A stretch of 64,000 nucleotides of DNA from Minisyncoccota bacterium (GCA_041664265.1 JBAYLD010000003.1:7988-71987); one strand, 5' to 3'; shown: positions 5,844 through 40,703, numbered from the stretch's first letter. Translations and numbers: made by a program. Notes: a model not told the origin generated them from the sequence alone.

Positions 5844-6944
5844 CTATTGATTCATTGGGGAGACAAGATAGAGGAGTGAGGTATCCCCTACCCCTTTTAT
5901 AATCAGCGGGCGGCCGATGCCTGCAGCAGTGAGTGAGAGGCTCTCAGTGGTAGTAAGTGAGAGTGCTGCTAAAAGATAGCGATAATTAAAAGAAAGATCG
6001 AGTGCGCTCCCCGCTATGCGAGCAGAAAGCGTCTCTGACGCTTCGCCTACATCAGTATTCTTCGCGAATAAAGAGAGTGTATTCTTTTTTGGATCAAAAC
6101 TTAAGCGCACTTTCTGAAAAGAGTCTGAAAAGATGGTTGTTTGTTTTAACGCATGTTCAAAATCTTTTCTCAACACTATTGCCTCAACAATTGATTCTTT
6201 CGGGATTATCTGACGATAATCAGGATATACCGAATTCGTAAGCCGAGATACCAACATACCACTCGTGCTCACAAACGCGCATTGATGTTCATCAAACGAC
6301 ATTATAATGTCGTCATCTGGTAGCGCTTGTGCTATATCAAGGGCATTTTTTGCAGGAATGAGGAATTTCCCTTGTGTTCCTTTGTTTATAAGAGGTATTT
6401 TTTTCTCTGCAAGCCGAAATGAGTCTGTCGCAACCGCAGTTAAGATACCCCCTTCTATTGAGATATAGATACTCGCAAGTTCTGGGCGAACAGTTGAGGA
6501 TGAAGCACAAGGCGCAAGAGAAGAAAATAGAGCGCGCAGAAGAACTCCCGGGAGGACAATCCTATTTTTGGGGTTCTCGGGAAATGGGATTGAAGGAAAA
6601 TCCTCATACAGAACAGTCCGTATAGAACTTTTCCCCATGCCGCTTGTGAGCGATACGATATCTCCAGTGTGTTCTAGAGTAATAGTTCCTCCTGGAGTGA
6701 GTGTGTGTGCTATTTGTTGTAGTATCGTTGAGGGTAGGGCTACCACGCCGTGAGTTTTGCATTCTCCTTCAATTTTTAAATCTATTCCCGTTTCAAGATT
6801 TGTTGCACGCATCTTTATCCCATCATCCCCAGCAATAATAAGGATGGTAGAGAGTGCAGGGAGTGTCGTACTCTTACGTTCTGCGAATCGAGCAACAGTA
6901 GAGACTGCTTCAGAGAATATTTTTTTATCTATTGAAATATACAT
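5844..6944 (-). CDS. dnaN: DNA polymerase III beta sliding clamp
   Basis: 366 aa, three-domain clamp pattern, position immediately downstream of dnaA. Confidence 0.9.
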   Translation of the reverse strand: MYISIDKKIFSEAVSTVARFAERKSTTLPALSTILIIAGDDGIKMRATNLETGIDLKIEGECKTHGVVALPSTILQQIAHTLTPGGTITLEHTGDIVSLTSGMGKSSIRTVLYEDFPSIPFPENPKNRIVLPGVLLRALFSSLAPCASSSTVRPELASIYISIEGGILTAVATDSFRLAEKKIPLINKGTQGKFLIPAKNALDIAQALPDDDIIMSFDEHQCAFVSTSGMLVSRLTNSVYPDYRQIIPKESIVEAIVLRKDFEHALKQTTIFSDSFQKVRLSFDPKKNTLSLFAKNTDVGEASETLSARIAGSALDLSFNYRYLLAALSLTTTESLSLTAAGIGRPLIIKGVGDTSLLYLVSPMNQ

Positions 6945-7055
6945 ACGATGCTTATTAGGGCTGTTGATAAGTGGATAAATGAAAATAATGAGGCGCTTCT
7001 TGCATAAAAACCATATCCACTCCTGCGATTCCTGTTAATAAACGTAATGATATCT
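6945..7055. promoter_or_regulatory. dnaA-dnaN intergenic region with three DnaA-box-like 9-mers (TGTTGATAA/GTGGATAAA tandem on minus = TTATCAACA, TTATCCACT; ATATCCACT on plus) plus AT-rich stretch; candidate oriC / DnaA autoregulatory site
   Basis: Matches to TTATCCACA consensus with 1 mismatch each, seen in sequence at ~6961-6980 and ~7011-7020. Confidence 0.45.
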
Positions 7056-8441
7056 TCATACAAGAAGGGTACGGATATTTTGAATCTCAGTTGCGAGATC
7101 ACTATCCACAACAATTTCACGCTTTACCTTCTCACAAGAGTGGATAACAGTCGTATGATCTCTCCCTCCTAATTTTGTGCCGATAGCGGGATACGAGATA
7201 TTAAAATCTTCCCTCAAGAGGTACATAATAACTTGCCGCGGGCGCACCACTTCCCTCCTACGAGTCTTTTCGTAGATACTTTCTTCATCAATACCATAGA
7301 ATTCTGCCACTTTATCAACGACGTTTTTTACCGATATGCTTTTTTGAGGTCGGGTGAATGAGCGGAGTGACTGCCGCACTTCAGCTATATCAGGCGCACA
7401 CCCCTTCACCTGCGCGTGGCACACAATGCTATTTATCATTCCCTCCAGTTCACGTATTGATCCAGAAAGAGAGGTTGCGACATACTCGACCACTTCATCC
7501 GAGAGTATAAAACCATGTAGAGCAGCCTTTTTTCGTATAATAGCCATGCGCGATTCCGAATCAGGTTCGCTAATATCAACAGCCATACCACTTGATAAAC
7601 GGCTCTTTAAGCGCTCAGCAATATCAGGGATAGCTACAGGAGCGCGGTCGGAGGAAAAAATAATTTGTTTATTTGTGTCGTGGAGGGTATTAAAAAGGTG
7701 GAAAAGCTCCTCTTGCGTCTTATCCTTCTTAGAGAGGAATTGTACATCGTCCATGATCAAAAGATCGTATTGACGATATTTATCTTTAAAGCGATTTGCG
7801 GTTCCCGCTTGTAAGGAATCGCTGTAATCAACAGCGAATTTTTCTGAGGTGAGATAAAAGACTTTTCGCCCCTGATACAATTTTTTAAACTGGTTGCCTA
7901 TCGCTTGGATAAGGTGGGTCTTCCCTCTCCCGGTATCACCATAGATAAAAAGAGGGTTATAGGTAATACCAGGGCGTCCTAGAGCCGCTTGTGCCGCGGT
8001 ATACGCGAGTGTATTAAATGAGCCGATGACAAACGTATCAAATGTGTACCTCGGGTTCAAATTGTCACTTTTGTTGATATAAAAATCATCCAAAGGGAGC
8101 TCAAGCGCGCCGCTGGTGTTCTTAACCTCCTTCTGCACCTTTCGCCGGTCATCTTTTAAAATAAGGTATTCTATGTTCCTAAACTCGTACGAAACATCCC
8201 TCAGTATCTTTAAGAGTAATGTGTGGAATTTTTTTAAGTACCAATCTTTGAAAAACTGGCTTGGCACCCCGATATAGACAACACCATCTTCATCCACTTT
8301 TGCGATAAAACTGGTACAAAACCATGTGTTGAAATTTGCTGGTGATATAGAAAGCTCAACCTGCGTTAGCACATATTCCCAAAGTTCCTGGAGATTCCCT
8401 TTATTCATAATCGTATAGTCTGAGTATACTCTTGCCTCCAA
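7056..8441 (-). CDS. dnaA: Chromosomal replication initiator protein DnaA (TTG start)
   Basis: AAA+ Walker A GDTGRGKTHL, DnaA box-binding C-terminal domain (VIMYLLRE, HTTVIHS), 461 aa. Confidence 0.95.
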   Translation of the reverse strand: MEARVYSDYTIMNKGNLQELWEYVLTQVELSISPANFNTWFCTSFIAKVDEDGVVYIGVPSQFFKDWYLKKFHTLLLKILRDVSYEFRNIEYLILKDDRRKVQKEVKNTSGALELPLDDFYINKSDNLNPRYTFDTFVIGSFNTLAYTAAQAALGRPGITYNPLFIYGDTGRGKTHLIQAIGNQFKKLYQGRKVFYLTSEKFAVDYSDSLQAGTANRFKDKYRQYDLLIMDDVQFLSKKDKTQEELFHLFNTLHDTNKQIIFSSDRAPVAIPDIAERLKSRLSSGMAVDISEPDSESRMAIIRKKAALHGFILSDEVVEYVATSLSGSIRELEGMINSIVCHAQVKGCAPDIAEVRQSLRSFTRPQKSISVKNVVDKVAEFYGIDEESIYEKTRRREVVRPRQVIMYLLREDFNISYPAIGTKLGGRDHTTVIHSCEKVKREIVVDSDLATEIQNIRTLLV

Positions 8442-8508
8442 AAGTAAGAAACAGTAGTTTTTTGGGGAGAACCTGTTATTATCATGTGTATAACCTAATC
8501 TTCATAGT

Positions 8509-8646
8509 ATGCCGAAACAAACGTACCAACCCAAAAAGCGGAAGCGCGCAAAAACTCACGGATTCCTCTCGAGAGCAGAAACGAGCTCTGGCCGTAAGAT
8601 CGTACAAAAGCGACGTCGCGCCGGACGTACGCGTTTAACGGCTTAG
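8509..8646 (+). CDS. rpmH: 50S ribosomal protein L34
   Basis: Translation [45 protein letters not shown] (45 aa) missed by ORF track size cutoff; canonical rpmH-rnpA-yidC order. Confidence 0.9.
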
Positions 8647-8651
8647 ATACT

Positions 8652-8966
8652 GTGTTTCCGCGCAAAGAACGGTTTCCGCGCGCGCTCTTCCCCACCGCTT
8701 TAAAGACTGGCCGGCGACTCTCGTCAGCACATCTGACGATCCTCGTCCCAAGAGAAGGAAAGGGATATGCGGTGGTGGTGTCAAAAAAAGTGGCTCGTCT
8801 TTCAGTCAAGAGGAATCAAATAAGGCGCCGAATCCTCGCAGCGCTCCGCCGGGCACCCCTAGACGGAAAGACCCTCCCTCCGGCGCTTATTGTTTTTCCC
8901 CGTTCTTCTGTGAGTAGTGTAAGCTATAAAGATATTAAGGTAGAACTTATGCAACTTATTCCGTGA
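8652..8966 (+). CDS. rnpA: Ribonuclease P protein component (GTG start)
   Basis: Small basic protein directly after rpmH, RnpA-like RNR motif region (KRNQIRRRI), 104 aa. Confidence 0.85.
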   Translation: MFPRKERFPRALFPTALKTGRRLSSAHLTILVPREGKGYAVVVSKKVARLSVKRNQIRRRILAALRRAPLDGKTLPPALIVFPRSSVSSVSYKDIKVELMQLIP

Positions 8967-9694
8967 TATCAGCTTTTTTCCACACCGTCTTCTATAATCC
9001 GATCTACAATGCGCTCGTTGCGCTCGTTGCGCTCGTGCCTGGCTCTGATGTGGGTATTGCTGTCGTGTTGCTCACGATCGGTATTCGGCTTATCCTCCTC
9101 CCCTTCTCCCTCTCGGCGGCGCGTACCCAGCGCGCGATGAAGGCTTTAGAGCCAAAAATCAAGGAATTGAAGGATAAACATAAGGGCGATAAAGAAAAAG
9201 AGGCGCTTGAGACTCTCGCACTCTATCGCGAATCGCGTGTGAACCCATTTGCGAGCATTTTGACGGTTTTTATCCAGATACCGGTCCTTCTCGCGCTCTA
9301 TTGGGTGTTCTATTATGAGCCGTTTTCAACGATTAATACGGCTCTGTTGTACCCGTTTACCCCCACCCCCGGCACCGCGTCACTTGAATTCCTCGGGCTC
9401 ATCTCAGTCGCAGGTAAGAGCATTACGCTCGCGGTGCTCGCGGGGCTGACCCAATTCCTCCAAGCACACATGGCGCTCAGAGGGACCATGAGCCCAGCGC
9501 ACAGCAGTGCACAAGGGGATTTCCAGAAGATTATGGGCATGCAGCTCAAATATGTCTTCCCCTTCCTTATTGGCATTATTTCATATACAACTTCTGGAGC
9601 TGTGGCGCTTTATTTCATTACCACCAACCTCGCGGGCTCGCTCCAAGAATGGCACGTCCGGCGCAAACTCGACGCCGAAGCCCTACATACATAG
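8963..9694 (+). CDS. yidC: Membrane protein insertase YidC/Oxa1 family, short form (GTG start)
   Basis: 5 TM core with conserved YidC helices, 243 aa, follows rnpA. Confidence 0.9.
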   Translation: MISAFFHTVFYNPIYNALVALVALVPGSDVGIAVVLLTIGIRLILLPFSLSAARTQRAMKALEPKIKELKDKHKGDKEKEALETLALYRESRVNPFASILTVFIQIPVLLALYWVFYYEPFSTINTALLYPFTPTPGTASLEFLGLISVAGKSITLAVLAGLTQFLQAHMALRGTMSPAHSSAQGDFQKIMGMQLKYVFPFLIGIISYTTSGAVALYFITTNLAGSLQEWHVRRKLDAEALHT

Positions 9695-9712
9695 GGCTGC
9701 CCTATGTATGTA
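9684..9712. terminator. 13-bp-stem hairpin TACATACATAGGG-ctg-CCCTATGTATGTA overlapping the yidC stop codon; 23-nt core repeated at 31971-31993
   Basis: Perfect inverted repeat seen in sequence; weak T tract follows. Confidence 0.4.
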
Positions 9713-9736
9713 GGAGCAGTCTTTCTTCTGAGACAT

Positions 9737-9767
9737 CTCAATATCAAGGCGAAACCTTGATATTGAG
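9737..9767. other. Perfect hairpin CTCAATATCAAGG-cgaaa-CCTTGATATTGAG in yidC downstream spacer
   Basis: Seen in sequence. Confidence 0.5.
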
Positions 9768-9813
9768 GTATCCCCTATTTGTGCGGTCGTCGCATTTAGG
9801 GGTTAAACTGAAT

Positions 9814-9887
9814 GTACCTTCATTTACGCTATAGCGTGAAATATGGTACACACTCATCGTTCCAATCTGTGCATACCCAGTATGCAC
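9814..9887. repeat. Composite palindromic repeat element copy B (inverted order relative to copy A): degenerate GTACC-TTTACGCTATAGCGTGAAA-GGTAC palindrome (9814-9849) then GTGCATACCCAGTATGCAC (9869-9887)
   Basis: Shares CGCTATAGCG core and GTGCATAC..GTATGCAC palindrome with 1059-1138. Confidence 0.8.
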
Positions 9888-9917
9888 AACTTAAACCTTA
9901 CACCTTACCGCTTACGC

Positions 9918-11114
9918 CTAGAGCGAGTAGCTCCAGAGGGAGTCGTCGTTTTTGTTTAGAAACACGAGTGTTGTGGCATCTGGGTCGATCGCGAGCGCAG
10001 TGGCGTCGAGAGAATCCCCGGTTTCTTCTGGGAAATCGAGCACCAGCTGCGCATAGCGGCCCTCGACTTCGATCTTCCAAATCCGATCAGAGAACTGCAC
10101 AGCTCCCTGGTACCAATCATCCGGATACACAGAGTCAGTAGGAGGGTCGAGCGGGATACCGCAGTATACTGAAGAGTCGTCAGCGGCCCACACGCATTTA
10201 TCGACGATCGTAGTGACCGGGAGTGATGTGATGTCGCCCGTCTCGGTGTCAACAAGATCTAATTGCAGAGCGTTATCGAGGACGTAGCTCACCAGCGCCC
10301 ACTTCCCTGAGGGGCTCGCGAGGGCGACGAGACCGTTGAGCGGTCCGGCGATTCGGGAAAAGCGCCCAGCGTCATCGACAAGAAAGGCAGCCCCAGGGAG
10401 TGTGGCGGCTGGCTTGGTATACGCGAGATAGCGCGATTTGCCAGCAAATGAAACACGCAGCGCAGAGAGCGGGGTGCTAAACAGCTCTGCCGTACGCACA
10501 TCGTTTGTGGTACTAAGTGTCGCAACAGAACCAGTGACACCCGAGACGAGTGTGAGCACGCCCGCCGAAGAAACAGCGAGAGCAGAAATATTTTGCGGCA
10601 AAAAGAATCCTTCTGGTGGCGCCTCGGAGCGCGCCGGGAGTGCGTAGGTATTGATCGTAGAGAAATCTTCGCCGGAGAGGTACCGGACGAATGCCGTTTT
10701 TGCATCGGGGACCCACGCGGCAGATTGGATACCCGGGATCGTTTGATTATTCGTTCGGGTGACGGCTCCTGTGCGTGTGCTATAGGAGAAAACGTTTCCG
10801 CTCTGCCGTTCAATATAGTGCACCAGCGTCTCGGGAGAGGAACTTGCGTTTATCGCAGGGGCATTCACCACGGCCTCGCCCGGCACTACCGGTCCCACGC
10901 TTATCTTCACGAGCCGCGCGGATATGGGGGTCGGTTCGCCCGCGGGTGTCGTGGTGCCGGAGTCTGCAGGAAATATACCCTGCCCCGCTAGAGGGAGGTT
11001 TACGTTTGGCGCGACGGTGAGGCTCGCTTTGGGGGTGAAGAAATAGAAATAGACGAACGCACCTACTCCTATCAGGAGTATCAGAATCGCGGCGATGATC
11101 AAGATGCGTCGCAT
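9918..11114 (-). CDS. Membrane-anchored hypothetical protein (N-terminal TM, ~370 aa extracytoplasmic Ser/Thr-rich beta-rich domain); last gene of T4SS-like operon
   Basis: TM helix RRILIIAAILILLIGVGAFVYFYFF; no recognisable catalytic motif; start taken at second Met of ORF 9918-11144. Confidence 0.55.
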   Translation of the reverse strand: MRRILIIAAILILLIGVGAFVYFYFFTPKASLTVAPNVNLPLAGQGIFPADSGTTTPAGEPTPISARLVKISVGPVVPGEAVVNAPAINASSSPETLVHYIERQSGNVFSYSTRTGAVTRTNNQTIPGIQSAAWVPDAKTAFVRYLSGEDFSTINTYALPARSEAPPEGFFLPQNISALAVSSAGVLTLVSGVTGSVATLSTTNDVRTAELFSTPLSALRVSFAGKSRYLAYTKPAATLPGAAFLVDDAGRFSRIAGPLNGLVALASPSGKWALVSYVLDNALQLDLVDTETGDITSLPVTTIVDKCVWAADDSSVYCGIPLDPPTDSVYPDDWYQGAVQFSDRIWKIEVEGRYAQLVLDFPEETGDSLDATALAIDPDATTLVFLNKNDDSLWSYSL

Positions 11115-11118
11115 AGCA

Positions 11119-11895
11119 TTATGGCGTAGGTACGTTGCACCCAACCACGAGGCTTAAACTACCCGGACACGTAAGGGTATTCGTTTTTGGGTCGACGCTC
11201 GTGACTTGGGCGGTTTTCCCGTCTGGGCTTAGGCATTTAGGTTGCTGGGGCCTCCCAGGGATAGCAGAGCAGCTTTTTATGGTGTTCTTGCAATCAGGAT
11301 CATTGGTGCAGAACATCAGTCGCAGGCTGGGGTCGGTAGATACTATTGAGTTTAATCCTCCTGCAAGTGGCGGAGGTGTGGGTGCTATTGGCACTCTTGT
11401 TGATGTTGATGATTTGGTATCGAGTGCCGGAAGGTTCAACGAGAGATTTAGGATGTTCGGATTGATAATGGAGAAGACGATTGCCGGCGAGAGGACGAGG
11501 ATAAGGCCGTATATGGCGTTGTAGATTTTCCCCTTATCATCAGTGATGGTACTGACCGCGTCTTTATGGAAGTAAGCGATATCGAGTCCGGACCATATGA
11601 TCTGGATGATTGCGAGTATCGCGGCAAGCCCGATGAGATATTTATAGAGATTATTGAAGAAGGTGGCGAGCGAAGTTGAATTCACCACACTCGTCACACT
11701 AGCATCAGTAAGTCCGGGGATGGGCGCGAGTGCGACGAAGCTGACACATTTGTTTTCCGCACAAGAAAGCCCCGAAACACAGTCGTTATCGCTCGTACAA
11801 GCACTTCCATTCTGACCGGTACCCGCAGCGAGCACATACGGCGCAAGCCCAAAGAAAAGAGACAAGATTGCTGCAAAGAGGACTGTTTTTCTCAT
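11119..11895 (-). CDS. Secreted cysteine-rich protein with central double-TM hairpin; candidate VirB2/TrbC-like pilin subunit
   Basis: Signal peptide, two hydrophobic helices (LIGLAAILAIIQIIWSGL / IYGLILVLSPAIVFSII) resembling T4SS pilin fold, operonic with VirB4. Confidence 0.4.
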   Translation of the reverse strand: MRKTVLFAAILSLFFGLAPYVLAAGTGQNGSACTSDNDCVSGLSCAENKCVSFVALAPIPGLTDASVTSVVNSTSLATFFNNLYKYLIGLAAILAIIQIIWSGLDIAYFHKDAVSTITDDKGKIYNAIYGLILVLSPAIVFSIINPNILNLSLNLPALDTKSSTSTRVPIAPTPPPLAGGLNSIVSTDPSLRLMFCTNDPDCKNTIKSCSAIPGRPQQPKCLSPDGKTAQVTSVDPKTNTLTCPGSLSLVVGCNVPTP

Positions 11896-12878
11896 AGGCC
11901 AAAGAAGCTAAAGCCGCTCGATGAAGCGCCAAATATGAGAGAGAGCGCGGCGGTCGCTTGCGCAGATTCTCCAGCCGAGGCGACGAGCGAGAGTGAGGCG
12001 CTCCCCTGCCCGCTTCCTGTGGGTCGGAGCGTTATAGAGGTCCCGGTTTGCGCCTCAGACCCGTTCAAGAACCATTGGAGAAGCGGCGCGCCGCCGGTGA
12101 TCGGCAGAGAGAACGGTGCGGCATAGAGCGTATCCTCCGCGCCGTTGATGGTGTAGTTACCAGAGAGTGCGTGCCCGAAGCGAATACCAAGCAGCGGATC
12201 ATTCTCATACACGCGCAGCGAGGGCTCGCTTGGGGTGAGTGAGATCGTTGTGCCACCGACGAGGCTCCCGTCTGAGCTCGCGACTGAGACTGAGACCGAT
12301 CGTGAACGATATTGCAGCGGCGATGCAACGATGATGGTCTCCTTCCCGATGCCTGAGGCTCGCGCGACGTGTGCGCCATCGACGGTCCACGCATAAGCAT
12401 ATGAAGATGGATCGAGCGTCTTGCCTTTTGCATCGCTTAAGCGGGCCATCGCTACAACGCGCACATCTCCCTCAACCGGCACCAGGGGCTTCCCTAGGTA
12501 GAGCGGGGGCGCCGAAGCAATCGGCTCGGCGATGAGCACAACGTCTTGGGGTTGGATAGAAATCGTCTGGCTATGGTTTGCTCCATTCGAAATTATCGTT
12601 ACCACTGCACGCGTGACACTTCCTGTCCTGCCGAGCGGGAGAGCAGTCGGCTGGACGTTCCCGCGATACAGCTCTTTGCCCGCAACCGAGACGATCATGG
12701 TCGCGCTTGCGAGGTCAATTGTAGGAGAGACGACTGAGAGCACCGCCTGGCTGTGAGGAGCTGGATATTGAGGGCTTAGTGAAATAGAAAAAGTTCCTGC
12801 AGTGCCGAGGGTTTGCGCCAAAACGGCGAGGGGCAGTAAGAGGATGAGGACAAGAGCGGTGAAGAGAAAAGAACGCAT
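11892..12878 (-). CDS. Secreted hypothetical protein (signal peptide, Ser/Ala-rich, ~330 aa)
   Basis: Signal peptide MRSFLFTALVLILLLPLAVLA; no motif recognised; in T4SS-like operon. Confidence 0.55.
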   Translation of the reverse strand: MRSFLFTALVLILLLPLAVLAQTLGTAGTFSISLSPQYPAPHSQAVLSVVSPTIDLASATMIVSVAGKELYRGNVQPTALPLGRTGSVTRAVVTIISNGANHSQTISIQPQDVVLIAEPIASAPPLYLGKPLVPVEGDVRVVAMARLSDAKGKTLDPSSYAYAWTVDGAHVARASGIGKETIIVASPLQYRSRSVSVSVASSDGSLVGGTTISLTPSEPSLRVYENDPLLGIRFGHALSGNYTINGAEDTLYAAPFSLPITGGAPLLQWFLNGSEAQTGTSITLRPTGSGQGSASLSLVASAGESAQATAALSLIFGASSSGFSFFGL

Positions 12879-12882
12879 GTCT

Positions 12883-13383
12883 CTAGTATACCCCAGCGTT
12901 CGGCATCGTTTGTTGAGTTTGTTCATATTTTTTCAACACCTTTTTGTCGTTCTCTATCTGCGTTTTGTAGATGCCCCAAACCATAACAAGCACGCTTGCG
13001 CCGAGGCCCCCAAGCGACCAGAGGATGGAGAACGGATTGTCTTTAAACGCACGCCCGTTCGCCGCGAAGATAAAAAAGGTCACCGTGAGCCAACCGGCAA
13101 ACCCGACCGCCATCGCCATAATGGTGCCGAAGGCGATAAGCGCAGGTGCGCCGAGGTACCCGCCAGCGACGGCGCCAGCTCCACACACCAGCCCCCCTAC
13201 GGTTGTTCCAACGACACCACTGACTTTTGTCGTGCAATACAAGGCGGCTGCTGCCGGCCCGAAGAACCAAAAAAAGAGAAAAAAATAGCGCAGTGCGTCA
13301 AAGAGGGCGGCGGCAGCGAGGATCCATGATGCCCCCTTCCAGGTCATTATCTTGGGCGGCTTGCTATTTCTTTTCTGTAGCAT
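12883..13383 (-). CDS. Small polytopic membrane protein (4 predicted TM), T4SS-like operon component
   Basis: Hydropathy by eye; Gly-rich TM segments; overlaps VirB4 stop by 20 nt (translational coupling). Confidence 0.5.
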   Translation of the reverse strand: MLQKRNSKPPKIMTWKGASWILAAAALFDALRYFFLFFWFFGPAAAALYCTTKVSGVVGTTVGGLVCGAGAVAGGYLGAPALIAFGTIMAMAVGFAGWLTVTFFIFAANGRAFKDNPFSILWSLGGLGASVLVMVWGIYKTQIENDKKVLKKYEQTQQTMPNAGVY

Positions 13384-15181
13384 ACCGCGCTTTCTCTTCT
13401 TTTATCGCGAGAAGTTGCGAGGGATCAGAGGTGATGATCTGGTCCTCGGTATAACTGGCGACCACCTTAATCGCGACGTGCTTGAGGCCCGCGAAGAAGA
13501 GTCCCTCGCCCACGCCGGCCTCGAGGAGGAGATATTTCTCTTCGTCGGTGAGATTGAAAGTCTGTTGCAGCACCTCGATGGTTGTCGGGGACTGTTTTAA
13601 CAAGAGTTGCAGAGAAGAGTTGGTGAGAATGGGCCGTCCATAAGGGCTCTTCAAGAAGTCCTCGACGTCTTGGGTGATCGTGCAGACGCCCAGGTAATAT
13701 TTGCGCCCGCGTTTTGCGACTGAATAGAGGAATGACGCCGTATCCTCGCTCTTCATCATCCACCACGCTTCATCGATGATAAGCAGCCGCTTCTTCAGCT
13801 CGTGGCGCACGGCGTTCCAGATGTAATGGGTGATGATGTACATCGCCACTGGCTTGAGCTCATCCTCCATGTCACGCACCGAGAACACTTCAAATTGCTG
13901 CGTGAGATCGATGTTGGTTGGTTGGTTTAAGAATCCCGCCCACGAGCCGCGGGTATATTTAGAGAGCCGTTCGACCAGGGACTCGCTTCCCTCCATGCCC
14001 GAGAGCACTTGTTCGAAGTCAGAAAGGAGCGGCGACTCCGCCCCGGTGAAGTCGGCATCGCCGGTGATGTCCTTGAGCGCGTAGGTCTCGCTGATGGCGC
14101 GGTCAACGATAGCGTCTTCGGCGGGCGAGAGGCCGCCCAACATGATGCGGAAAAGTCCGACCAGCGAGATAATGTTAGAGCGCAGGATGTCCTTCGGGTC
14201 CTCGTCCTCTTTGACCGGCGGGAGGTCAAACGGGTTGATGTGGTGCTCGGAGGAGAGGGATATATGGAAGACGCGCCCGCCGGTCGCCTCGGCGAGCTGG
14301 TCGTATTCGCGCTCGGGGTCGATGACGATGATATCCGTCCCGAACATGAGCGAACGCAGGATCTCGAGTTTTGTGCAGTAGCTTTTACCGGAACCTGACT
14401 TCGCGAAAATAACCGAGTTGTAGTTCTCAAGCGAGAACCGGTCGAAGAGGATGAGTGAGGAATTGTGCCGATTGATGCCGTAAAGAATGCCGCGGTCGCT
14501 CGTGAGGTCGAACGACACGAAGGGGAAGATGGAAGAGAGCGGCGATGAGTTCAGTTTCGAATTGACCAAGAGTTCGTCGGTGCCGATCGGTAGGCACGAG
14601 CGGAATCCTTGCTCTTGTTGGAACAATGCGGGCTTTGTGTAGACCAGTTTAGCGTCAAGGATGCCACGGATGTCGCCCTCGGTCTTGTCTATCTCTTCCT
14701 TCGAGTTGCCGTAGAGCGCGAGGTACAACCCGACGTCGAACAGCTTTTCTTGGGCTTGTTGGAGATTGTTGCGCAGGCTCTCAAGGTCTTGATACGCTGT
14801 GTCCAAGAGTGGGTCGCGCACGAGCCCTTTTGACTCGCGTTCGTTGATCTGGCTCTGGACCTCGGCGACTTTTTTCTGGAAATCGCGCAATGCCCGTTCG
14901 GTCTCGACGGGGTGTATGAACAAAGAGACATCAAGTACCTTATCGAGATTGATGACGGGCGAGAACCAGCTGTCGGCAAGAAAGCGCGGGTAGGAAATGG
15001 TATAGAAGGCGCGGACGAACTTCTCTCCCAGCTCGATTTCGCGTGACCCTATCTTGAGGGCGGTTGGAGCGATGGTGTCGACGAGGTCGAGCGATCCTTG
15101 GGCGTAAATATCCTTGGGCAACACCGGCAGTACCGCGGGTGTCTCCTCCTTCTTCCGGCTGATAAAATCAAGTAGAGCCAT
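13364..15181 (-). CDS. VirB4/TrbE/CagE-family type IV secretion ATPase, C-terminal ATPase portion (605 aa)
   Basis: Walker A FAKSGSGKS, Walker B LLIIDEAWW, conserved VirB4 C-terminal region; lacks the N-terminal domain, which is encoded by the upstream ORF. Confidence 0.8.
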   Translation of the reverse strand: MALLDFISRKKEETPAVLPVLPKDIYAQGSLDLVDTIAPTALKIGSREIELGEKFVRAFYTISYPRFLADSWFSPVINLDKVLDVSLFIHPVETERALRDFQKKVAEVQSQINERESKGLVRDPLLDTAYQDLESLRNNLQQAQEKLFDVGLYLALYGNSKEEIDKTEGDIRGILDAKLVYTKPALFQQEQGFRSCLPIGTDELLVNSKLNSSPLSSIFPFVSFDLTSDRGILYGINRHNSSLILFDRFSLENYNSVIFAKSGSGKSYCTKLEILRSLMFGTDIIVIDPEREYDQLAEATGGRVFHISLSSEHHINPFDLPPVKEDEDPKDILRSNIISLVGLFRIMLGGLSPAEDAIVDRAISETYALKDITGDADFTGAESPLLSDFEQVLSGMEGSESLVERLSKYTRGSWAGFLNQPTNIDLTQQFEVFSVRDMEDELKPVAMYIITHYIWNAVRHELKKRLLIIDEAWWMMKSEDTASFLYSVAKRGRKYYLGVCTITQDVEDFLKSPYGRPILTNSSLQLLLKQSPTTIEVLQQTFNLTDEEKYLLLEAGVGEGLFFAGLKHVAIKVVASYTEDQIITSDPSQLLAIKEEKARYATEKK

Positions 15182-15214
15182 GGTGAAATATTTAAATATG
15201 TAAAAATTTAAATT

Positions 15215-15847
15215 TCATGCGAGGCGGATCGGATTCTCGAGTTCTCCCGGGTTAAATGAGCGATAGAGAAGCTCAATGACTTCTTCAGTGCCGAGCGAGA
15301 CCGCCCGCACCCCGGTACCCGCAAGGCCGCCGGCGACAAGCGAGAGCCTTTGGGAGAGTTGCGCGCGATTTTCTTCAAAGGAGGTTTGGGCAGCGGCACT
15401 TTTTGTCGAAGCGCTCTCGTTGCGTAAGAAGCCGATCGTATGTGCAGCGGAGACATGCGGGGCGTACGGGACGACGACATAAAATGACTTCGTCATGATG
15501 TTTGCCTGATCGGCAAAAGAACGGATGAACTCGATATATTCGCGCAATTGGATCCGCATGAGTTCGGTCTTCTGGGCAGCCTCTTTTGCTTCAAGGAGAT
15601 TTAGATAAGGGCGGAGATCCATCTTGCGGGAGTTGATGACGATTTGAATCGAGAAATCGAGCGTGTTGAGGAAATTCTGGAAGCCAAGCGTGATCGCGTG
15701 CTGTTCTTCAGCCGACTTAAGCCCGAAGTTGATGGAGGAGCAGATGAGGATCCCGCGATAGCCGCCGTCCTTAAGGGTGATGATCCCATCCCTGATTTCT
15801 TTGATCGGGACAAACTGTTGTGTAGCTCCTGCTGGTTTCTCCGCCAT
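15215..15847 (-). CDS. VirB4 N-terminal-domain-like protein (211 aa), separate ORF upstream of the ATPase ORF
   Basis: N-terminal motif FVPIKEIRDGIITLKDGGYRGILICSSINFGLKSAEEQ resembles conserved start of VirB4/TcpF/ConE family; start taken at MAEKP (upstream part of ORF 15215-16090 is basic low-complexity and overlaps next gene). Confidence 0.5.
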   Translation of the reverse strand: MAEKPAGATQQFVPIKEIRDGIITLKDGGYRGILICSSINFGLKSAEEQHAITLGFQNFLNTLDFSIQIVINSRKMDLRPYLNLLEAKEAAQKTELMRIQLREYIEFIRSFADQANIMTKSFYVVVPYAPHVSAAHTIGFLRNESASTKSAAAQTSFEENRAQLSQRLSLVAGGLAGTGVRAVSLGTEEVIELLYRSFNPGELENPIRLA

Positions 15848-15848
15848 A

Positions 15849-16286
15849 CTACTTTTGTGCCTCATCCGAGGGCGCGTCTTTGGCGGATACGTCCAACGAC
15901 CATGCAAGTTCCGAAAGCTTTCCCTGCGTGAGTTTTCTGCCAAGGGTGCGCCCCGCGGCGGGCGGCGTCGCCGCACTCGCCACCGCATTCTTCTCAGCTT
16001 CTTGTTGCCCCTGATGCTTCCAAAGGAGAAGCTTTGCGCCCGTATAATAATGCAACCCAGCCTCAAGAACCTCGATAAACGGCTTGCCATTTATCTTATA
16101 AAACGCGAGAGCTGCAGCGAGTGCGACCACGGGTATCGAGAGGAGGATCGCGAGGAGAATCGGCAGATAGGCGAAAAAGATGACGCAGAGCCCGCCGGCG
16201 CCGGCGATATAGATAAATTGTTTCAGGGTCAAAGGCCCTACGATCTTGTCTTCGACCTCAATGAACTGCGGCACTTGGTATTCCAT
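15849..16286 (-). CDS. Small membrane protein, VirB3/PrgI-like candidate (2-3 TM, 145 aa)
   Basis: Position immediately upstream of VirB4 N-domain with 1-nt spacer; hydrophobic core CVIFFAYLPILLAILLSIPVVALAAALAF. Confidence 0.4.
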   Translation of the reverse strand: MEYQVPQFIEVEDKIVGPLTLKQFIYIAGAGGLCVIFFAYLPILLAILLSIPVVALAAALAFYKINGKPFIEVLEAGLHYYTGAKLLLWKHQGQQEAEKNAVASAATPPAAGRTLGRKLTQGKLSELAWSLDVSAKDAPSDEAQK

Positions 16287-16301
16287 CTCCCATAGTATAC
16301 A

Positions 16302-16940
16302 TTACCCGCCGATGAGGAATCCGAAGATCCACACGACGAGGCTGAAGAATGGCCCAGCGAAGACAGATGAGAAGACGAGCAAAAAGAGGATGAGCGAAAA
16401 TATGCCTGCGCCGCGAATCTGGTGCTCAAAACGAGCAAGACCCGATGAGAGACGCCACGGGAGCAGGGAGCGCAGCACCGTGAAGCCGTCGAGCGGTGGG
16501 AACGGGACGAGGTTGAACAAGCCGAGGAAGAGATTGATGAACGCGATAGTTGCGGCGAGCGAGAGCGCCGTAGCGTCAAAGCCAATCGTCGAACCAAAAC
16601 GCACAATGAGCCCGAAAACGACCGCGAGGAGGATGTTCGTCGCGCTGCCAGCCACCGCGACGAGTCCATCGCCCCATCGCTGATTTTTGAGATTGTAGGG
16701 ATTGTAGGGTACCGGTTTCGCCCAGCCGAAGAGGATGGGAGAGCCGCTCAAGACCAGAAGTGTGGGGAGGATAACCGAGCCTATAAGATCGATATGTGGG
16801 AGCGGGTTCAAGGTGAGGCGACCGGCGAGACGCGCGGTCGGGTCGCCAAGCGAGTTGGCGGCGTAGCCGTGCGCCACTTCGTGGGCGATGACCGAAAAGA
16901 TGAGGATAACGAGGATAAGAACCGTGTTTGCTTCTGCCAT
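16302..16940 (-). CDS. Site-2 protease family (peptidase M50) zinc metalloprotease
   Basis: HEVAHG (HExxH) in first TM, downstream conserved LDG motif, polytopic. Confidence 0.8.
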   Translation of the reverse strand: MAEANTVLILVILIFSVIAHEVAHGYAANSLGDPTARLAGRLTLNPLPHIDLIGSVILPTLLVLSGSPILFGWAKPVPYNPYNLKNQRWGDGLVAVAGSATNILLAVVFGLIVRFGSTIGFDATALSLAATIAFINLFLGLFNLVPFPPLDGFTVLRSLLPWRLSSGLARFEHQIRGAGIFSLILFLLVFSSVFAGPFFSLVVWIFGFLIGG

Positions 16941-16965
16941 ATTCTAATGGTATCATGCCCGAACT

Positions 16966-17211
16966 ATGGCACGCAGCTGCGAGATCACCGGTAAAAGCAC
17001 GCAAATCGGCGGGCGGTACAGCAACCGCGTTCGTGCGACGCAGTTCAACCCCACCGGCAAGGTTCGCCGCAAGGCGAACCTCCAGAAGCGCCGCATCTAC
17101 GTCCCCGAACTCAAGAAGACGGTCATCGTGGACGTCTCGGTCAAGGGCCTCAAGACTATTAAAAAGAATGGCGCCTTCGCCGCGCTCAAGAAAGCCGGGG
17201 CTATTAAATAG
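16966..17211 (+). CDS. rpmB: 50S ribosomal protein L28
   Basis: MARSCEITGK N-terminus, 81 aa basic protein. Confidence 0.9.
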   Translation: MARSCEITGKSTQIGGRYSNRVRATQFNPTGKVRRKANLQKRRIYVPELKKTVIVDVSVKGLKTIKKNGAFAALKKAGAIK

Positions 17212-17238
17212 CTCCATTGTTTGAAAATATTTGGAAAA

Positions 17239-17262
17239 ACGCCCGCAAGGGCGTTTTTTTAT
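17239..17262 (+). terminator. Rho-independent terminator after rpmB (ACGCCCGCAAGGGCGT + T8)
   Basis: GC hairpin followed by TTTTTTTATT. Confidence 0.7.
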
Positions 17263-17309
17263 TGGTGAGTTCACGAAGTGTTCATGAAGGGGGTGATACT
17301 TTTATCGGC

Positions 17310-17846
17310 ATGACGTACACACCAAAAACGTTCAACCTCTCTGCCCTATCGGGGATCTCGGATAAGCAGATTAAAGTGCATCTCGCGCTGTATGAGGGCT
17401 ACGTGAAGCAGGTGAACGAGCTCATCGACACGCCGAATGCTCCCCGATTTGCTTTTGAGTTTAATGGTATGCGTCTGCACGAATATTATTTTGAGCAACT
17501 TGAGGGACGTCAGACGTCCCTCACTTCCGGAAGCGCACTTGAGGGGATTGAGGCGAAAGTCAAAGAAACTGCGGGGACACGCGGCCCTGGGTGGGTGGTT
17601 GTGTACTTCGATCCGGTCACGCAGGCATTTCATACCGCTTTTGTGCATGACCATGAGATCGGTCAGTTCGCGGGGCTGCCGATTATTCTCGTGCTCGATA
17701 TGTGGGAGCACGCCTATATGGTGGACTATCTGCCAGCGGAGAAGAAGAATTATATTGACGCCTTCTTCGCCAATGTTAATTGGGGCGTGATTGAGAGGCG
17801 TTTTGACTCCGCCAGTCGTCGGAGCGAGAAGATGAGTGCCGCATAA
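17310..17846 (+). CDS. Fe/Mn superoxide dismutase
   Basis: DMWEHAY motif, conserved His ligands; start taken at MTYTPKTF with AGGGGG RBS (ORF 17217-17846). Confidence 0.85.
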   Translation: MTYTPKTFNLSALSGISDKQIKVHLALYEGYVKQVNELIDTPNAPRFAFEFNGMRLHEYYFEQLEGRQTSLTSGSALEGIEAKVKETAGTRGPGWVVVYFDPVTQAFHTAFVHDHEIGQFAGLPIILVLDMWEHAYMVDYLPAEKKNYIDAFFANVNWGVIERRFDSASRRSEKMSAA

Positions 17847-19300
17847 GCAGCGACGACGAACAGGAACGGGAAACGTTCGATCATAAATGCAGAAAAAGGT
17901 AGTGCGGAGCTCTTTTCTGCGACAAAGATGAAATAACGCATAAGGACGAACACAGGAGCCCCCGCTATGGTGGCGATAATCGGGACGAGCGGTCCTATCG
18001 TCATCCCGACGACGCCAGCGATTGCCGCCGAAGCCATAGCGATTGGTACCAGAGGATTAACGAGAAGGTTCGCCGGCAGGGCGACGAGCGAGAAGAGCCC
18101 GATGTTGTAGAGGAGGAGCGGCAGCACTGAAATTTGTGCTGCGAGCGTTGTCGCTACCGCGTTTTTCAAAAAGCCATGTTTGGACTTCGTAACTTCATCT
18201 GATGAGTGATTTACGAAGTCCCAGAGTCTCTCAATGATCGGCGAGAGCCAGATGATGCCGGCCGTCGCGGCGACGGAGAGGCCGAAGCCGGGGTCAAAAA
18301 CGAGATAGAGAGGATTCCAAAGGAGCATGAGCAGGATCGCGAAGAGCAGCGCACGGCTGGCGTAATAAGAGCGGCCGGTCGCGCGCGCATAGAGCGCGAT
18401 CACCGCCATAATCGCGGCGCGCACGGCAGTCGCCGAGATGCCGGCGACTCCGACAAAGAGGAGGAGCGCCGCCCCGCCGGCGAAGAATTGGAGCCGCCGC
18501 GGCAGCCGGAGAAGCGCGAAGAAAATCATCACCCACTCGGCCACGATCATGACGTTGTATCCCGAGAGCACGATGATCTGCACGAGCCCCGAGCGCGTGA
18601 AGGCGTCGGTGAGCGTAGTGCCGAGTCCCGCCTTCCCTCCTATGACGATGCCGCCCGCCAGCGCACTGTCTGGCTTGGGCAATGCGCGATTGAGCCCGTC
18701 TAAAAAGGCGTGCTTCACACGCGTGAGCGCTGCGGGGATTGAATACCACGGCGCTGCCTCCTCGGTGTGTATCGATCCAAATTGGATGAGGAATCGGATG
18801 TTCCGAGCCTGCAGATATTTATCATAGCGGAAGGTGCGGCCGCCATCGGTCTCAAATGCTTCCGGCAGGGAGAGCGTCCCATACACCCGCACCCGATCGC
18901 CGACCTTCACGTCGGCCGAGAGCGGCATCACTGCTAACATGCCGGTCACATCTTCTCCATTCCGTATCTCCAATGCGATGCGCTGATTCTTCTCGCGCAC
19001 ATCGGGATCGCCGACCACAACTCCGGTGTAAGACACTCGGTGTTTGACATCACGCATGAACGCGTCAGGCGCGGGCGTGTCCACGATCGCTGCACGCAGC
19101 ATCCCGAACGCGATGAACAAACAAAAAGCCGCGCCGAGTGTGTACGCTCGGCGCGGCTTCAAAAAACTCGCGGCACCAAAGATCGCCGCGATGATAAGTA
19201 TAAAAATAATCGGAGACCAACCAAAAATAAAAAGCGAGCGGAGAAATACCCCACTCGCGAATCCCATGACAATTGCAATTAGGATTTCCATGCTGCTCAA
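17750..19300 (-). CDS. comEC: ComEC/Rec2 family DNA internalisation competence protein (no C-terminal metallo-beta-lactamase domain)
   Basis: N-terminal OB/DUF4131-like region then multi-TM competence domain; 516 aa; 3' end overlaps sod gene convergently. Confidence 0.85.
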   Translation of the reverse strand: MSSMEILIAIVMGFASGVFLRSLFIFGWSPIIFILIIAAIFGAASFLKPRRAYTLGAAFCLFIAFGMLRAAIVDTPAPDAFMRDVKHRVSYTGVVVGDPDVREKNQRIALEIRNGEDVTGMLAVMPLSADVKVGDRVRVYGTLSLPEAFETDGGRTFRYDKYLQARNIRFLIQFGSIHTEEAAPWYSIPAALTRVKHAFLDGLNRALPKPDSALAGGIVIGGKAGLGTTLTDAFTRSGLVQIIVLSGYNVMIVAEWVMIFFALLRLPRRLQFFAGGAALLLFVGVAGISATAVRAAIMAVIALYARATGRSYYASRALLFAILLMLLWNPLYLVFDPGFGLSVAATAGIIWLSPIIERLWDFVNHSSDEVTKSKHGFLKNAVATTLAAQISVLPLLLYNIGLFSLVALPANLLVNPLVPIAMASAAIAGVVGMTIGPLVPIIATIAGAPVFVLMRYFIFVAEKSSALPFSAFMIERFPFLFVVAAYAALIFSLRRLAESKRLSITPQLTLAKKASI

Positions 19301-20884: not shown

Positions 20885-22612
20885 TTATGTCACTTTGATA
20901 TCCAAAAGTCGCAGGCGGACGGGAGCGCCGCGGCTGAACGTATCTCGCTCGAGGTGTACCAGTAGGCTCGCGCGACTAGGTGACCCAAGTTTCTCTACTG
21001 TGCGTGCGAGCGCGCCTTTTACAAAAAAAGTTACGGCATCAATACTCTCGTTTGAGTCAGGAGCATCTATCTTCAATTTCAAATGTTCGTGCGCCTTCCC
21101 GAAGCGTGAAATCTCCCGTACCGAGACATCACGCAACAAGAACACCGGCTTCGGGTTCTGCTGGCCGAAGGGAGAGAGTTGTTCGATCTTTTTTAAAAAT
21201 GATTCAGTCGCCTCTTCGGGTGTGATCACTGCGTCAGCGTGCATCTCGAGTGTGTCGACCGGTTCTGTCTCTGCAGCGATGCGTGCGAGGGTGTTCACGA
21301 GATTGTCCTCGAGAAAGAAGATCGCGTCATCTCGCACGGTGAAACCGCCCGCTGCCGCATGGCCACCGTATTGTGTGAAGGTCTCTTCAGTCGCGCGCAT
21401 GAGTTCAAGCGCGTGGACGCTGCCACCGCTTCGCACCGACCCCTTGATGCTCCCATTCCCTTCTCTCCCCCAGAGAAACACCGGACGCTCATATTCGTCG
21501 GCGATGCCACCGGCGACAAGCCCTAAGAGCGCGGGGCGCCACTGCGGGTCTCCGAGCGCGATTACGCTCCGCATCTCGCCGCGCTCTTTGATCCGCGCGT
21601 GCACTGCGCGCGTGAGCGCGCCCGCCTCCGCCTTCCGGCTTCGATTCGCTTTTTCTAATTTGTTCGCGAGCAACTCAGCTTCATTTTCATCGTTGGTGGT
21701 GAAGAGGCGGAGCGCGTCGCGCGCGTCGCCCATGCGGCTTGCGGCGTTGACACGCGGGGCGATCATAAAGCCGATGTCGTCTTCGGTGATTGTGCGTTGG
21801 TTCACGCGGATCACGCGGCACAATTTCTGCAGGCCGAGGCGCGGCGACTTGCGAAGCACCATGAGGCCGTAGGTTGCGAGTACGCGGTTCTCACCGACGA
21901 GCGGGACCATATCTGCGATGGTCGCGAGCCCCACCATATCAAGAAGCCACTTCTCCCACCCCAGCGGAACTTTTTCTCGGAGCATCGGTTCTGCAGCGAG
22001 TGTCGCGCAAACCAATTTCCACGCGACGCCCGCGCCGCAAAGCTCGTGGAATGGATATGACTCGTCGGCGCGCGCGTTCGGATTGACGATAGCGAATGCA
22101 TCGGGTAATTCTTCGCCGGGCATATGGTGATCGGTGACGATAACTTCCATCCCCAATTCTTTTGCACGCGCGATCGGCTCGGCATCGGTGATGCCGGAGT
22201 CCACGGTGACGACCAGTTTCACTTCGCTCTTTGCGAGAGCTTCAATGCCGCCGACATTCATCCCGAATCCTTCATCGTGCCGATGCGGAATATAATTTTC
22301 AAAATTCGCCCCGACTTTTTTTAAGAAGTCATGCAAGATTACGGCACCTGGGATACCATCGCAGTCATAGTCGCTCCATATCGCAATTTTTTCTCCCGAG
22401 AGAATCGCAGCAGCAAGTCGCCGTGCTGCCTTCTCCATACCAAGCATCAAGAGCGGATCATGCAAATGTAAATCATATGAGGGATTCAAGAAAATCTCGG
22501 CATCTTCTTTGGTCGTGACTCCGCGGCGCGCGAGGAGCGCGGCGGTGAGGTCGTCATAGGCGGCGAGCTCTTCGCGCACCGGATCAGCCAAAGGCTCATG
22601 GAGTGGAAACAT
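20885..22612 (-). CDS. recJ: Single-stranded-DNA-specific exonuclease RecJ
   Basis: DHH motifs (DYDCDG, VTDHH), DHHA1 region, 575 aa. Confidence 0.9.
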   Translation of the reverse strand: MFPLHEPLADPVREELAAYDDLTAALLARRGVTTKEDAEIFLNPSYDLHLHDPLLMLGMEKAARRLAAAILSGEKIAIWSDYDCDGIPGAVILHDFLKKVGANFENYIPHRHDEGFGMNVGGIEALAKSEVKLVVTVDSGITDAEPIARAKELGMEVIVTDHHMPGEELPDAFAIVNPNARADESYPFHELCGAGVAWKLVCATLAAEPMLREKVPLGWEKWLLDMVGLATIADMVPLVGENRVLATYGLMVLRKSPRLGLQKLCRVIRVNQRTITEDDIGFMIAPRVNAASRMGDARDALRLFTTNDENEAELLANKLEKANRSRKAEAGALTRAVHARIKERGEMRSVIALGDPQWRPALLGLVAGGIADEYERPVFLWGREGNGSIKGSVRSGGSVHALELMRATEETFTQYGGHAAAGGFTVRDDAIFFLEDNLVNTLARIAAETEPVDTLEMHADAVITPEEATESFLKKIEQLSPFGQQNPKPVFLLRDVSVREISRFGKAHEHLKLKIDAPDSNESIDAVTFFVKGALARTVEKLGSPSRASLLVHLERDTFSRGAPVRLRLLDIKVT

Positions 22613-26094: not shown

Positions 26095-26102
26095 ACGTTT
26101 GG

Positions 26103-26651
26103 TTAGTGATTGCGCAGTCGCAGCTGCTCTTGCCGATGGTCAGAGAGCGGATGCTGCTTCACCTGCGCTTGCGTTTGCAGATCAATAGTGACCGTGTCTA
26201 CTTGGGTAAAATCGGCGGCGTCATAACTGAATGTTAGCGCGCTCACGGTGGAACTGAGTAGTTTTGTACCAGAAACCCGTCGGCTCAAGGTGTTTGCTTC
26301 AAGAAGCCGGTAAGCATCGGGGCCCTCAGTATAGAACGTCGCGTAATCATACGTGTTTGCAATGACCATGCCGGAACTATCGATAGAAGGGATCTCGATG
26401 ACGAGCGTCGTCGATGATGAGGTGTGTGTCGAACTCGAGAAGGTGTGCGTTTGGAGCACGGCGTCGGCGGGAAGCACGAGCGACCCTGCTTCTCGCATGA
26501 GCATATCCGCCGAGCCGGATGATTGCGCGATGGCTTGCTGATACGACACTGATTCGTTGAAGCTGTAGACCAAAAAACCGAGAGTGAGCAGCATAACGAC
26601 ACTGAGAGCAACGACGATAACCGTTTCAACGAGGGAAAATCCACGAATCAT
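26103..26651 (-). CDS. Prepilin-type N-terminal cleavage/methylation domain protein (minor pilin/pseudopilin)
   Basis: MIRGFSLVETVIVVALSVVML: G-F-S-L-V-E with Glu at +5; start at MIRG inside ORF 26103-26726. Confidence 0.7.
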   Translation of the reverse strand: MIRGFSLVETVIVVALSVVMLLTLGFLVYSFNESVSYQQAIAQSSGSADMLMREAGSLVLPADAVLQTHTFSSSTHTSSSTTLVIEIPSIDSSGMVIANTYDYATFYTEGPDAYRLLEANTLSRRVSGTKLLSSTVSALTFSYDAADFTQVDTVTIDLQTQAQVKQHPLSDHRQEQLRLRNH

Positions 26652-28350: not shown

Positions 28351-28351
28351 A

Positions 28352-30100: not shown

Positions 30101-30108
30101 ATAGATAA

Positions 30109-30141
30109 AGTATAGCGCGCCGTTGCCTCGGCAATGCGCGC
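30109..30141 (-). promoter_or_regulatory. Predicted pilB promoter -10 TATACT (8 nt before ATG) immediately followed upstream by GC-rich inverted repeat GCGCGCCGTTGCC-tc-GGCAATGCGCGC (possible operator)
   Basis: Seen in sequence; -10 hexamer identical to other predicted promoters in window. Confidence 0.35.
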
Positions 30142-30253
30142 AGTACACATATAATAATAGATAGACGCGGTAATTTTGAAAAAAAGATACTGAGGTGTAC
30201 GATGGCGGTGGATCGTACAAATTCATCGAGTCAACAAGAGAAAGGAGGCTGGC

Positions 30254-39306: not shown

Positions 39307-39307
39307 G

Positions 39308-40697: not shown

Positions 40698-40703
40698 ACT
40701 AAC

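Follow-up and report, generated by a model that had tools for sequence, protein, structure and literature searches.

Genes for components of a type IV secretion system (T4SS) lie beside the replication origin in the genome of a Minisyncoccota bacterium, and the locus raises the question of whether they form a conjugative element that has settled in the chromosome or a resident machine, and of what such a machine would serve. The locus occupies positions 9918-16286 (minus strand) of a stretch of 64,000 nucleotides (GCA_041664265.1 JBAYLD010000003.1:7988-71987), which is called the window here; positions are counted from its first letter. The host genome is that of a Kaiserbacteria-like member of the Paceibacteria. 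Patescibacteria are ultra-small, account for much of bacterial diversity and apparently live on other cells. Analysis of gene content, synteny and conservation showed that the cluster is very probably a vertically inherited chromosomal T4SS of the Patescibacteria clade, with the Paceibacteria layout, which descends from the conjugation machinery of monoderm bacteria (MPF-FATA type) and no longer resides in a mobile element.

Gene content of the cluster

Calling of open reading frames (ORFs) showed that seven co-directional genes fill the interval on the minus strand, and all seven ORFs were intact. The junctions between them measured +1, +33, -20, -44, -4 and -26 nucleotides (nt) in transcription order, which shows tight packing. 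The sequence-only reading had counted eight genes in this interval; seven were found, and each gene that it had listed was present in its place on the minus strand. An eighth co-directional gene, coding for an M50-family intramembrane metalloprotease, lies 15 nt upstream of prgI, outside the interval, and may be co-transcribed with prgI. A scan of positions 8400-17400 for promoters and terminators was uninformative for operon boundaries: shuffled sequence gave more promoter-like sites, and the number of terminator-like sites was that expected by chance. Rfam and tRNA scans showed nothing within or beside the cluster.

The first three genes form a motor module. PrgI is the VirB3 equivalent in Gram-positive systems. 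The product of the first gene matched PrgI (PF12666) with an expectation value (E) of 5e-11 and 43.4 bits (gathering score 27) and has transmembrane helices at about residues 21-39 and 43-61; a VirB3-like membrane partner, as expected of a T4SS, is encoded beside virB4. The second protein aligned to positions 1-164 of the NCBIfam CD1110-type VirB4 model (E 2.3e-7) and matched the Mbov_0397 VirB4 model (1.5e-8), with a weak match, under the cut-off, to TrsD (NF041427, 1.5e-3) and no match in a sequence search against solved structures. A separate TrsD-like protein adjoining virB4 is a trait of the Patescibacteria clade, in whose published T4SSs TrsD is normally free-standing (PMC12102498).

The VirB4 protein matched NF045971 (CD1110 family) at 9.2e-112 and 374.7 bits (cut-off 325) over model positions 183-733, and so covers the portion of the model that follows the N-terminal domain; it also matched three Pfam families (Table 1). 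Walker A (GSGKS, residue 263) and Walker B (IIDEAW, residue 468) were both intact, as expected of the ATPase of a T4SS. In sequence searches, the closest solved relative was the VirB4 ATPase domain of PDB 4AG5 (3.2e-43), and the nearest plasmid-borne relatives came from Firmicutes and Actinobacteria at no more than 35% identity. Its placement with the Patescibacteria-clade VirB4s is putative and was judged from profiles and identities, with a best model from a Gram-positive family and these distant plasmid matches.

The sixth protein matched T4SS_pilin (PF18895) at residues 73-143 (1.1e-6, 29.1 bits; gathering score 26.6) and TrbC/VirB2 (PF04956) under the cut-off (5e-4). A VirB2-like pilin near virB4 is a further trait of the Patescibacteria clade. 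The VirB3-like protein, the VirB4 N-domain protein, the VirB4 ATPase and the VirB2/TrbC-like pilin had all been proposed from the sequence alone, and hidden Markov model searches bore out each of them. Absence of a VirB4-family match for 13364-15181 had been named beforehand as a refutation; the match found exceeds the curated NCBIfam cut-off.

Synteny and conservation among relatives

A scan of one genome per GTDB species gave 578 confirmed stretches, and 80 loci from several Paceibacteria lineages were kept and compared with the window proteins by tblastn. Many of these loci are short contigs; 47 of the 80 extend at least 9 kilobases (kb) downstream of virB4 and are informative for the downstream genes. 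The recurring order was prgI-trsD-virB4-(transmembrane protein)-immunoglobulin-like (Ig-like) protein-pilin-propeller protein-yidC-rnpA-dnaA-dnaN, with constant orientation. Upstream of virB4, prgI matches were found in 74 of the 80 loci. Downstream, matches were found for the Ig-like protein (73/80), the propeller protein (60/80), yidC (56/80), dnaA (49/80) and the pilin (47/80). Among the 47 informative loci, the propeller protein was matched in 46, the Ig-like protein and yidC in 45 each, and dnaA in 44.

Homologues of the VirB4 protein number in the thousands; the top 120 were 89-100% identical, and the named ones were assigned to Kaiserbacteria, Paceibacterota or Minisyncoccota. Identity to Paceibacteria homologues was 70-93%. 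Over the 59 more distant loci, median identity was 72.5% for VirB4, 54.7% for DnaA, 52.6% for TrsD, 44.1% for PrgI, 40.7% for YidC, 35.8% for DnaN, 33.6% for the pilin, 28.7% for the propeller protein and 28.0% for the Ig-like protein. The VirB4 ATPase is therefore better conserved than the replication initiator DnaA, and its identity above that of DnaA and DnaN points to strong purifying selection. Upstream of the cluster, the M50 peptidase, L28, a SOD-like protein, ComEC and RecJ were common to the closest 8-9 loci only (M50 adjacency in 9/80 loci, ComEC/RecJ adjacency in 8/80). Because synteny with dnaA is conserved across the class, the cluster appears to be an old, vertically inherited chromosomal system, unlike an integrated element.

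TGA is the stop codon of the trsD-like gene, and between it and virB4 lie 33 nt of AT-rich spacer (15182-15214) that keep the two in frame. An in-frame TGA between trsD and virB4, as a sign of a pseudogene or of recoding, was considered and rejected: the spacer is AT-rich and non-coding, and the other genes are normal in translation table 11. The pair is not a pseudogene, because a TrsD-like match precedes virB4, 0.7 kb upstream of it, in 79 of the 80 relatives, and in each of the 4 loci inspected the two genes form separate ORFs.

Conjugation genes and mobile elements

The plausible genes of the whole 64 kb window were scanned against Pfam, together with flanks of about 8 kb and about 18 kb on the same contig, and no relaxase or coupling protein (VirD4/TcpA type) was found in the window or in the flanks. 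Absence of these genes near virB4, with replication-origin genes nearby, is the arrangement of the Paceibacteria layout. A relaxase or type IV coupling protein (T4CP) just outside the window had been named beforehand as the sign of an ordinary integrated element; the flanks were found to hold RuvA, Mur ligase, PolA, TsaE and a second T2SSE ATPase on one side and EF-G, EF-Tu and a ribosomal protein operon on the other. The sequence-only reading had further held that the window lacks a relaxase, VirD4 and any mobile-element hallmark. This stood for the relaxase and the coupling protein, but one tyrosine recombinase, the sole recombinase of the window, is present 29 kb from the cluster. This protein of 301 amino acids (aa) aligned over its full length with XerA, XerC and XerD models (NF040815, 244.9 bits; cut-off 220), and this Xer-type enzyme probably serves to resolve chromosome dimers.

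It is highly improbable, and largely refuted, that the cluster is a conventional integrated conjugative element, or what is left of one in decay, that came to lie near the origin by chance. The VirB4, PrgI and TrsD families were defined on Gram-positive conjugative plasmids and transposons, and the best plasmid matches of VirB4 are mostly to conjugative plasmids. Such an element would nevertheless be expected to carry a relaxase, a T4CP and an integrase of its own, to sit at a tRNA or attachment site and to be patchily distributed, and none of this was observed in the window, its flanks or the related loci: the closest tRNA gene lies at 39.3 kb, the Xer-type recombinase at 45.4 kb, and position and order are identical in 80 species-level genomes of several Paceibacteria lineages. 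The block also has the composition of its surroundings (GC content 0.551 against 0.541 for the window), its seven ORFs are free of decay, and its VirB4 is more conserved than DnaA. The earlier proposal of a chromosomal, possibly non-conjugative T4SS-like apparatus is supported by the synteny with dnaA and by the lack of a relaxase and coupling protein in the window and flanks.

Pilin and envelope proteins

The pilin has a signal peptide, two transmembrane helices and 10 cysteines, arranged as an N-terminal 4-Cys module, a two-helix core (about residues 73-143) and a C-terminal Pro-rich linker with a 6-Cys domain. Its orthologues range from 106 to 582 aa, and the part common to them is the core (query residues of about 52-155). 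The extensions, N- and C-terminal, are lineage-specific and mostly Cys-rich, and 36 of 45 orthologues carry at least four cysteines. A sequence search against solved structures gave nothing beyond chance Cys-rich matches to Dickkopf. By analogy with the membrane topology of VirB2, both termini of the pilin would face outward and the extensions would decorate the filament surface. In at least one related locus (L022, 11827-14019), the propeller gene directly follows the Ig-like gene, and the pilin gene is missing from the position it has elsewhere.

No Pfam or NCBIfam family was found for the small membrane protein with four transmembrane helices, the Ig-like protein or the propeller protein. 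The AlphaFold2 model of the propeller protein, made from an alignment of 77 homologues (predicted local distance difference test score (pLDDT) 84; predicted template modelling score (pTM) 0.77), showed a transmembrane helix at residues 2-26, a disordered linker at 27-65 and then an all-beta domain, for which Foldseek returned generic propellers alone (WD40, tricorn, oligogalacturonate lyase) at template modelling scores of about 0.5. The Ig-like protein is predicted by its model to form three tandem Ig-like domains. A VirB8- or VirB9-like nature had been suggested for these last two proteins; this was unsupported, with a beta-propeller for one and a string of Ig-like domains for the other in the predicted structures.

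The four-helix protein is fast-evolving, with sequence similarity detected in 9 loci only. An ORF with 2-4 transmembrane helices occupied its position in 47 of 72 related loci, and the proteins at this position barely align (mean column identity 11%). None of 45 ORFs (the protein itself and 44 same-position ORFs in relatives) matched the TrbL/VirB6 families of Pfam, and at 166 aa the protein is shorter than typical VirB6 proteins. From its position and topology, our guess is that it is a VirB6-like channel subunit.

Several points weigh against the interpretation of the cluster as a chromosomal T4SS of the Patescibacteria clade. A VirB6 homologue went undetected, and the cluster lacks one of VirB8: its sole bitopic protein, the propeller protein, was modelled as an all-beta propeller and gave no VirB8/PrgL match. 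A complete translocation channel is therefore at most putative. Synteny is the sole basis on which the three family-less proteins are counted as parts of the machine, and the model of the Ig-like protein is moderately confident (pLDDT 68). VirD4-like genes occur in most Patescibacteria genomes, usually distant from virB4 (PMC12102498), and a coupling protein could be encoded elsewhere in this genome.

Replication origin and remaining window content

The origin-proximal location of the cluster is supported by a DnaA-box-like cluster, a minimum of the cumulative GC skew at about 8-10 kb, and dnaA and dnaN nearby. The dnaA gene lies 1.5 kb from the end of the cluster, and yidC and rnpA, in between, converge on the cluster. 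As has been suggested in the literature, proximity to the origin may raise gene dosage. The dnaA and dnaN genes have a GC content of 0.43, with values at third codon positions (GC3) of 0.44 and 0.35, against 0.54 for the rest of the window and GC3 values of 0.54-0.74 for neighbouring genes. The features are listed in Table 1.

Table 1. Features of the window, with position, strand and basis of assignment
Feature	Position	Strand	Basis
PilT-like ATPase	19-1047
dnaN	5844-6944	-	ORF
DnaA-box-like cluster, four sites	6962-7147		DnaA-box matches
dnaA	7056-8441	-	ORF
rnpA	8652-8966	+	ORF
yidC	8963-9694	+	PF02096
Transmembrane-anchored extracellular beta-propeller protein (predicted), 398 aa	9918-11114 (ORF to 11144 with TTG start)	-	AlphaFold2 model; no family
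VirB2-type T4SS pilin, 258 aa	11119-11895	-	PF18895
Secreted protein, three predicted tandem Ig-like beta-sandwich domains	11892-12926 (annotated start 12878, 328 aa)	-	Signal peptide; no family
Small polytopic membrane protein, 166 aa, about 4 transmembrane helices	12883-13383	-	Hydropathy; no family
VirB4-family ATPase, 605 aa	13364-15181	-	NF045971, PF19044, PF12846, PF01935
TrsD-like free-standing VirB4 N-domain homologue, 210 aa, soluble	15215-15847	-	NCBIfam VirB4 models
PrgI/VirB3-like protein, 145 aa, first gene of the cluster	15849-16286	-	PF12666
M50-family intramembrane metalloprotease	16302-16940	-
ComEC	17750-19300	-
RecJ	20885-22612	-
Type IV pilus genes	24823-30226
PilC (T2SSF)	27133-28350		Pfam
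PilB (T2SSE + MshEN)	28352-30226		Pfam
Four tRNA genes	39307-42222
Xer-type tyrosine recombinase, 301 aa	45400-46305		XerA, XerC, XerD models; NF040815
LysM + M23 peptidase	50360-51079
Three consecutive envelope proteins	55717-60588		No significant family

The rest of the window has a housekeeping character, with RuvB, RuvC, PBP, ComEC, RecJ, PGK, TIM, NusA, RNase Y, ClpP, UvrD, KsgA, S12 and S7. ComEC and RecJ lie just upstream of the T4SS block on the same strand. A separate type IV pilus system is also encoded, with a PilT-like ATPase, PilC, PilB and two or three prepilin-like (pseudopilin) proteins that carry N-methylation motifs; one of these weakly resembles ComGE.

Other observations concern regions away from the cluster. 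Three consecutive envelope proteins after ksgA gave no significant Pfam or NCBIfam family; they comprise a transmembrane-anchored protein of 345 aa with a weak TSP3-repeat match, a secreted protein of 585 aa and a protein with seven transmembrane helices (718 aa ORF, 692 annotated). The four tRNA genes (Gly-TCC, Pro-TGG, Gly-GCC and Arg-TCG) lie in a region of lower GC content (about 0.50) with small ORFs among them; the product of one such ORF, 226 aa long, weakly matches a transposase-type HTH. The LysM and M23 peptidase gene is 34 kb from virB4 and unlinked to the cluster; cell-wall hydrolases of LysM/M23 type are among the VirB1-like candidates in Patescibacteria (PMC12102498).

Proposed function

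In the proposed mechanism, PrgI and the TrsD-like protein would dock a VirB4 hexamer at the membrane, and VirB4 would pull the pilin out of the membrane and polymerise it into a filament or conduit of VirB2 type that spans the monoderm envelope. In T4SSs that have been studied, pilin extraction and assembly fall to VirB4. The two beta-rich proteins and the Cys-rich extensions of the pilin would be exposed on the cell exterior, where they would make the contact with the host. With no linked coupling protein or relaxase, the machine would not conjugate and would serve episymbiosis, bringing host macromolecules in or sending proteins out. Import is a possible function, if a doubtful one, and the same can be said of protein export; a role in adhesion or as a pilus only is rather unlikely. 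We suggest, very tentatively and with more doubt than confidence, that the three family-less proteins and the extension-bearing pilin form an undescribed, Paceibacteria-specific extracellular module of the T4SS. This module would stand in for the missing VirB6, VirB8 and adhesin, and it would be the end at which a conduit for uptake of host macromolecules meets the host.

A dedicated DNA-uptake machine, like ComB of Helicobacter or the archaeal Ced system, that feeds ComEC appears improbable. ComEC and RecJ are encoded less than 5 kb away on the same strand, VirB4 gave weak matches to CedB (33.3 bits, 2e-8) and CedD (23 bits, 2.8e-5), and import of DNA or other macromolecules has been proposed for these systems (PMC12102498). 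The linkage to ComEC and RecJ, on the other hand, is not conserved, and ComEC adjacency, being confined to the 8 loci noted above, was rejected as a conserved functional link; the Ced scores are far under the family cut-offs of 700 and 600, and the window holds a separate type IV pilus system, the usual partner in competence. Deletion of comEC in Southlakia abolishes competence but not viability, whereas the T4SS is essential (PMC12857230), which speaks against an essential role exerted via ComEC-dependent transformation. It is likewise unlikely, though somewhat less so, that the VirB4 module merely assembles an adhesive VirB2-type filament without translocation. The gene set (VirB3-like protein, VirB4 and pilin) is near the minimum for pilus biogenesis, a linked coupling protein is missing, the pilin carries variable Cys-rich extensions of surface type in orthologues of very different length, and the accessory proteins have predicted folds of adhesion type. 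Against a pilus-only organelle, type IV pili for adhesion are already encoded, an organelle for adhesion alone would be unusual in having so extremely conserved an ATPase, and at least one related locus, L022, has no pilin gene between its Ig-like and propeller genes. A T4SS that serves episymbiosis, as proposed above, accords with what is published for Saccharimonadia, in which epibiotic growth requires the T4SS and its pilins, no coupling protein or relaxase is recognisable, and protein export or an alternative role has been suggested (Wang et al. 2023, Cell, PMC10633639).

Comparison with known systems

The patescibacterial T4SS is among the few machines shown to be essential for an epibiotic lifestyle, in Saccharimonadia. 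In a 2025 review, the patescibacterial systems count as recent, established additions to the T4SS superfamily (PMC12857230). The reading given here, proposed earlier from the sequence alone, is the published view of Patescibacteria T4SSs (PMC12102498, PMC10633639, PMC12857230) and thus not novel, and the window locus, a clean Paceibacteria example, alone adds no new concept. New here are the predicted folds of two conserved hypothetical neighbours and the variable extensions of the pilin, with roles inferred from synteny only. Leads on what the machine transports are the ATPase conserved beyond DnaA, the Ig-like and beta-propeller folds, and a pilin whose conserved core bears hypervariable, Cys-rich decorations.

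With the VirB/VirD4 system of Agrobacterium and the Trw system of R388 (MPF-T), the cluster shares the VirB3-VirB4-VirB2 logic of pilus biogenesis, and VirB4 matched TrwK of R388 weakly (1.6e-7). Those are diderm machines with an outer-membrane core of VirB7, VirB9 and VirB10 and with VirB5, VirB6, VirB8, VirB11 and VirD4, none of which was found in the window cluster. The Gram-positive MPF-FATA systems (Prg of pCF10, Trs of pGO1 and Clostridium conjugative elements with CD1110-type VirB4) have the same VirB4 family, homologues of PrgI and TrsD, and a monoderm architecture that lacks VirB7, VirB9 and VirB10. Compared with them, the window cluster lacks a relaxase, a T4CP, a VirB1-like hydrolase, a PrgL/VirB8-like protein and a PrgB-type adhesin, but has a VirB2-type pilin, which those systems lack (PMC12857230). 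It is also chromosomal and syntenic with dnaA, with the low VirB4 identity to plasmid proteins given above.

The cluster of Southlakia epibionticum (SEML1_0006-0019, PMC10633639) is likewise an origin-proximal chromosomal cluster with a Gram-positive-like composition and in-cluster pilins. It belongs to the class Saccharimonadia and has six divergent pilins together with VirB1-, VirB6- and VirB8-like components (PMC12857230), whereas the window cluster encodes a single pilin and no hydrolase, and neither VirB6 nor VirB8 was detected in it; essentiality is known for Southlakia only.

The closest correspondence is with the T4SS of the Patescibacteria clade, described in a survey of 3,035 Patescibacteria genomes (Quinonero-Coronel et al. 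2025, Microb Genom, PMC12102498). In that survey, Patescibacteria VirB4s are monophyletic and nested in MPF-FATA; TrsD, PrgI/VirB3 and VirB2-like pilins are abundant beside virB4; relaxases are nearly absent and T4CP genes seldom linked to virB4; and Paceibacteria virB4 is often close to dnaA, dnaN and rnpA, within 20 genes (PMC12102498). The window cluster has a VirB4 of probable MPF-FATA affinity, the same separate TrsD-like protein, the same adjoining PrgI/VirB3 and nearby PF18895 pilin, no relaxase or T4CP near virB4, and dnaA, dnaN and rnpA nearby. Nothing substantive differs; the folds of the family-less neighbours are not in the main text of the survey, from which the words 'propeller' and 'hypothetical' are absent. 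The window locus is a typical member of this already described system.

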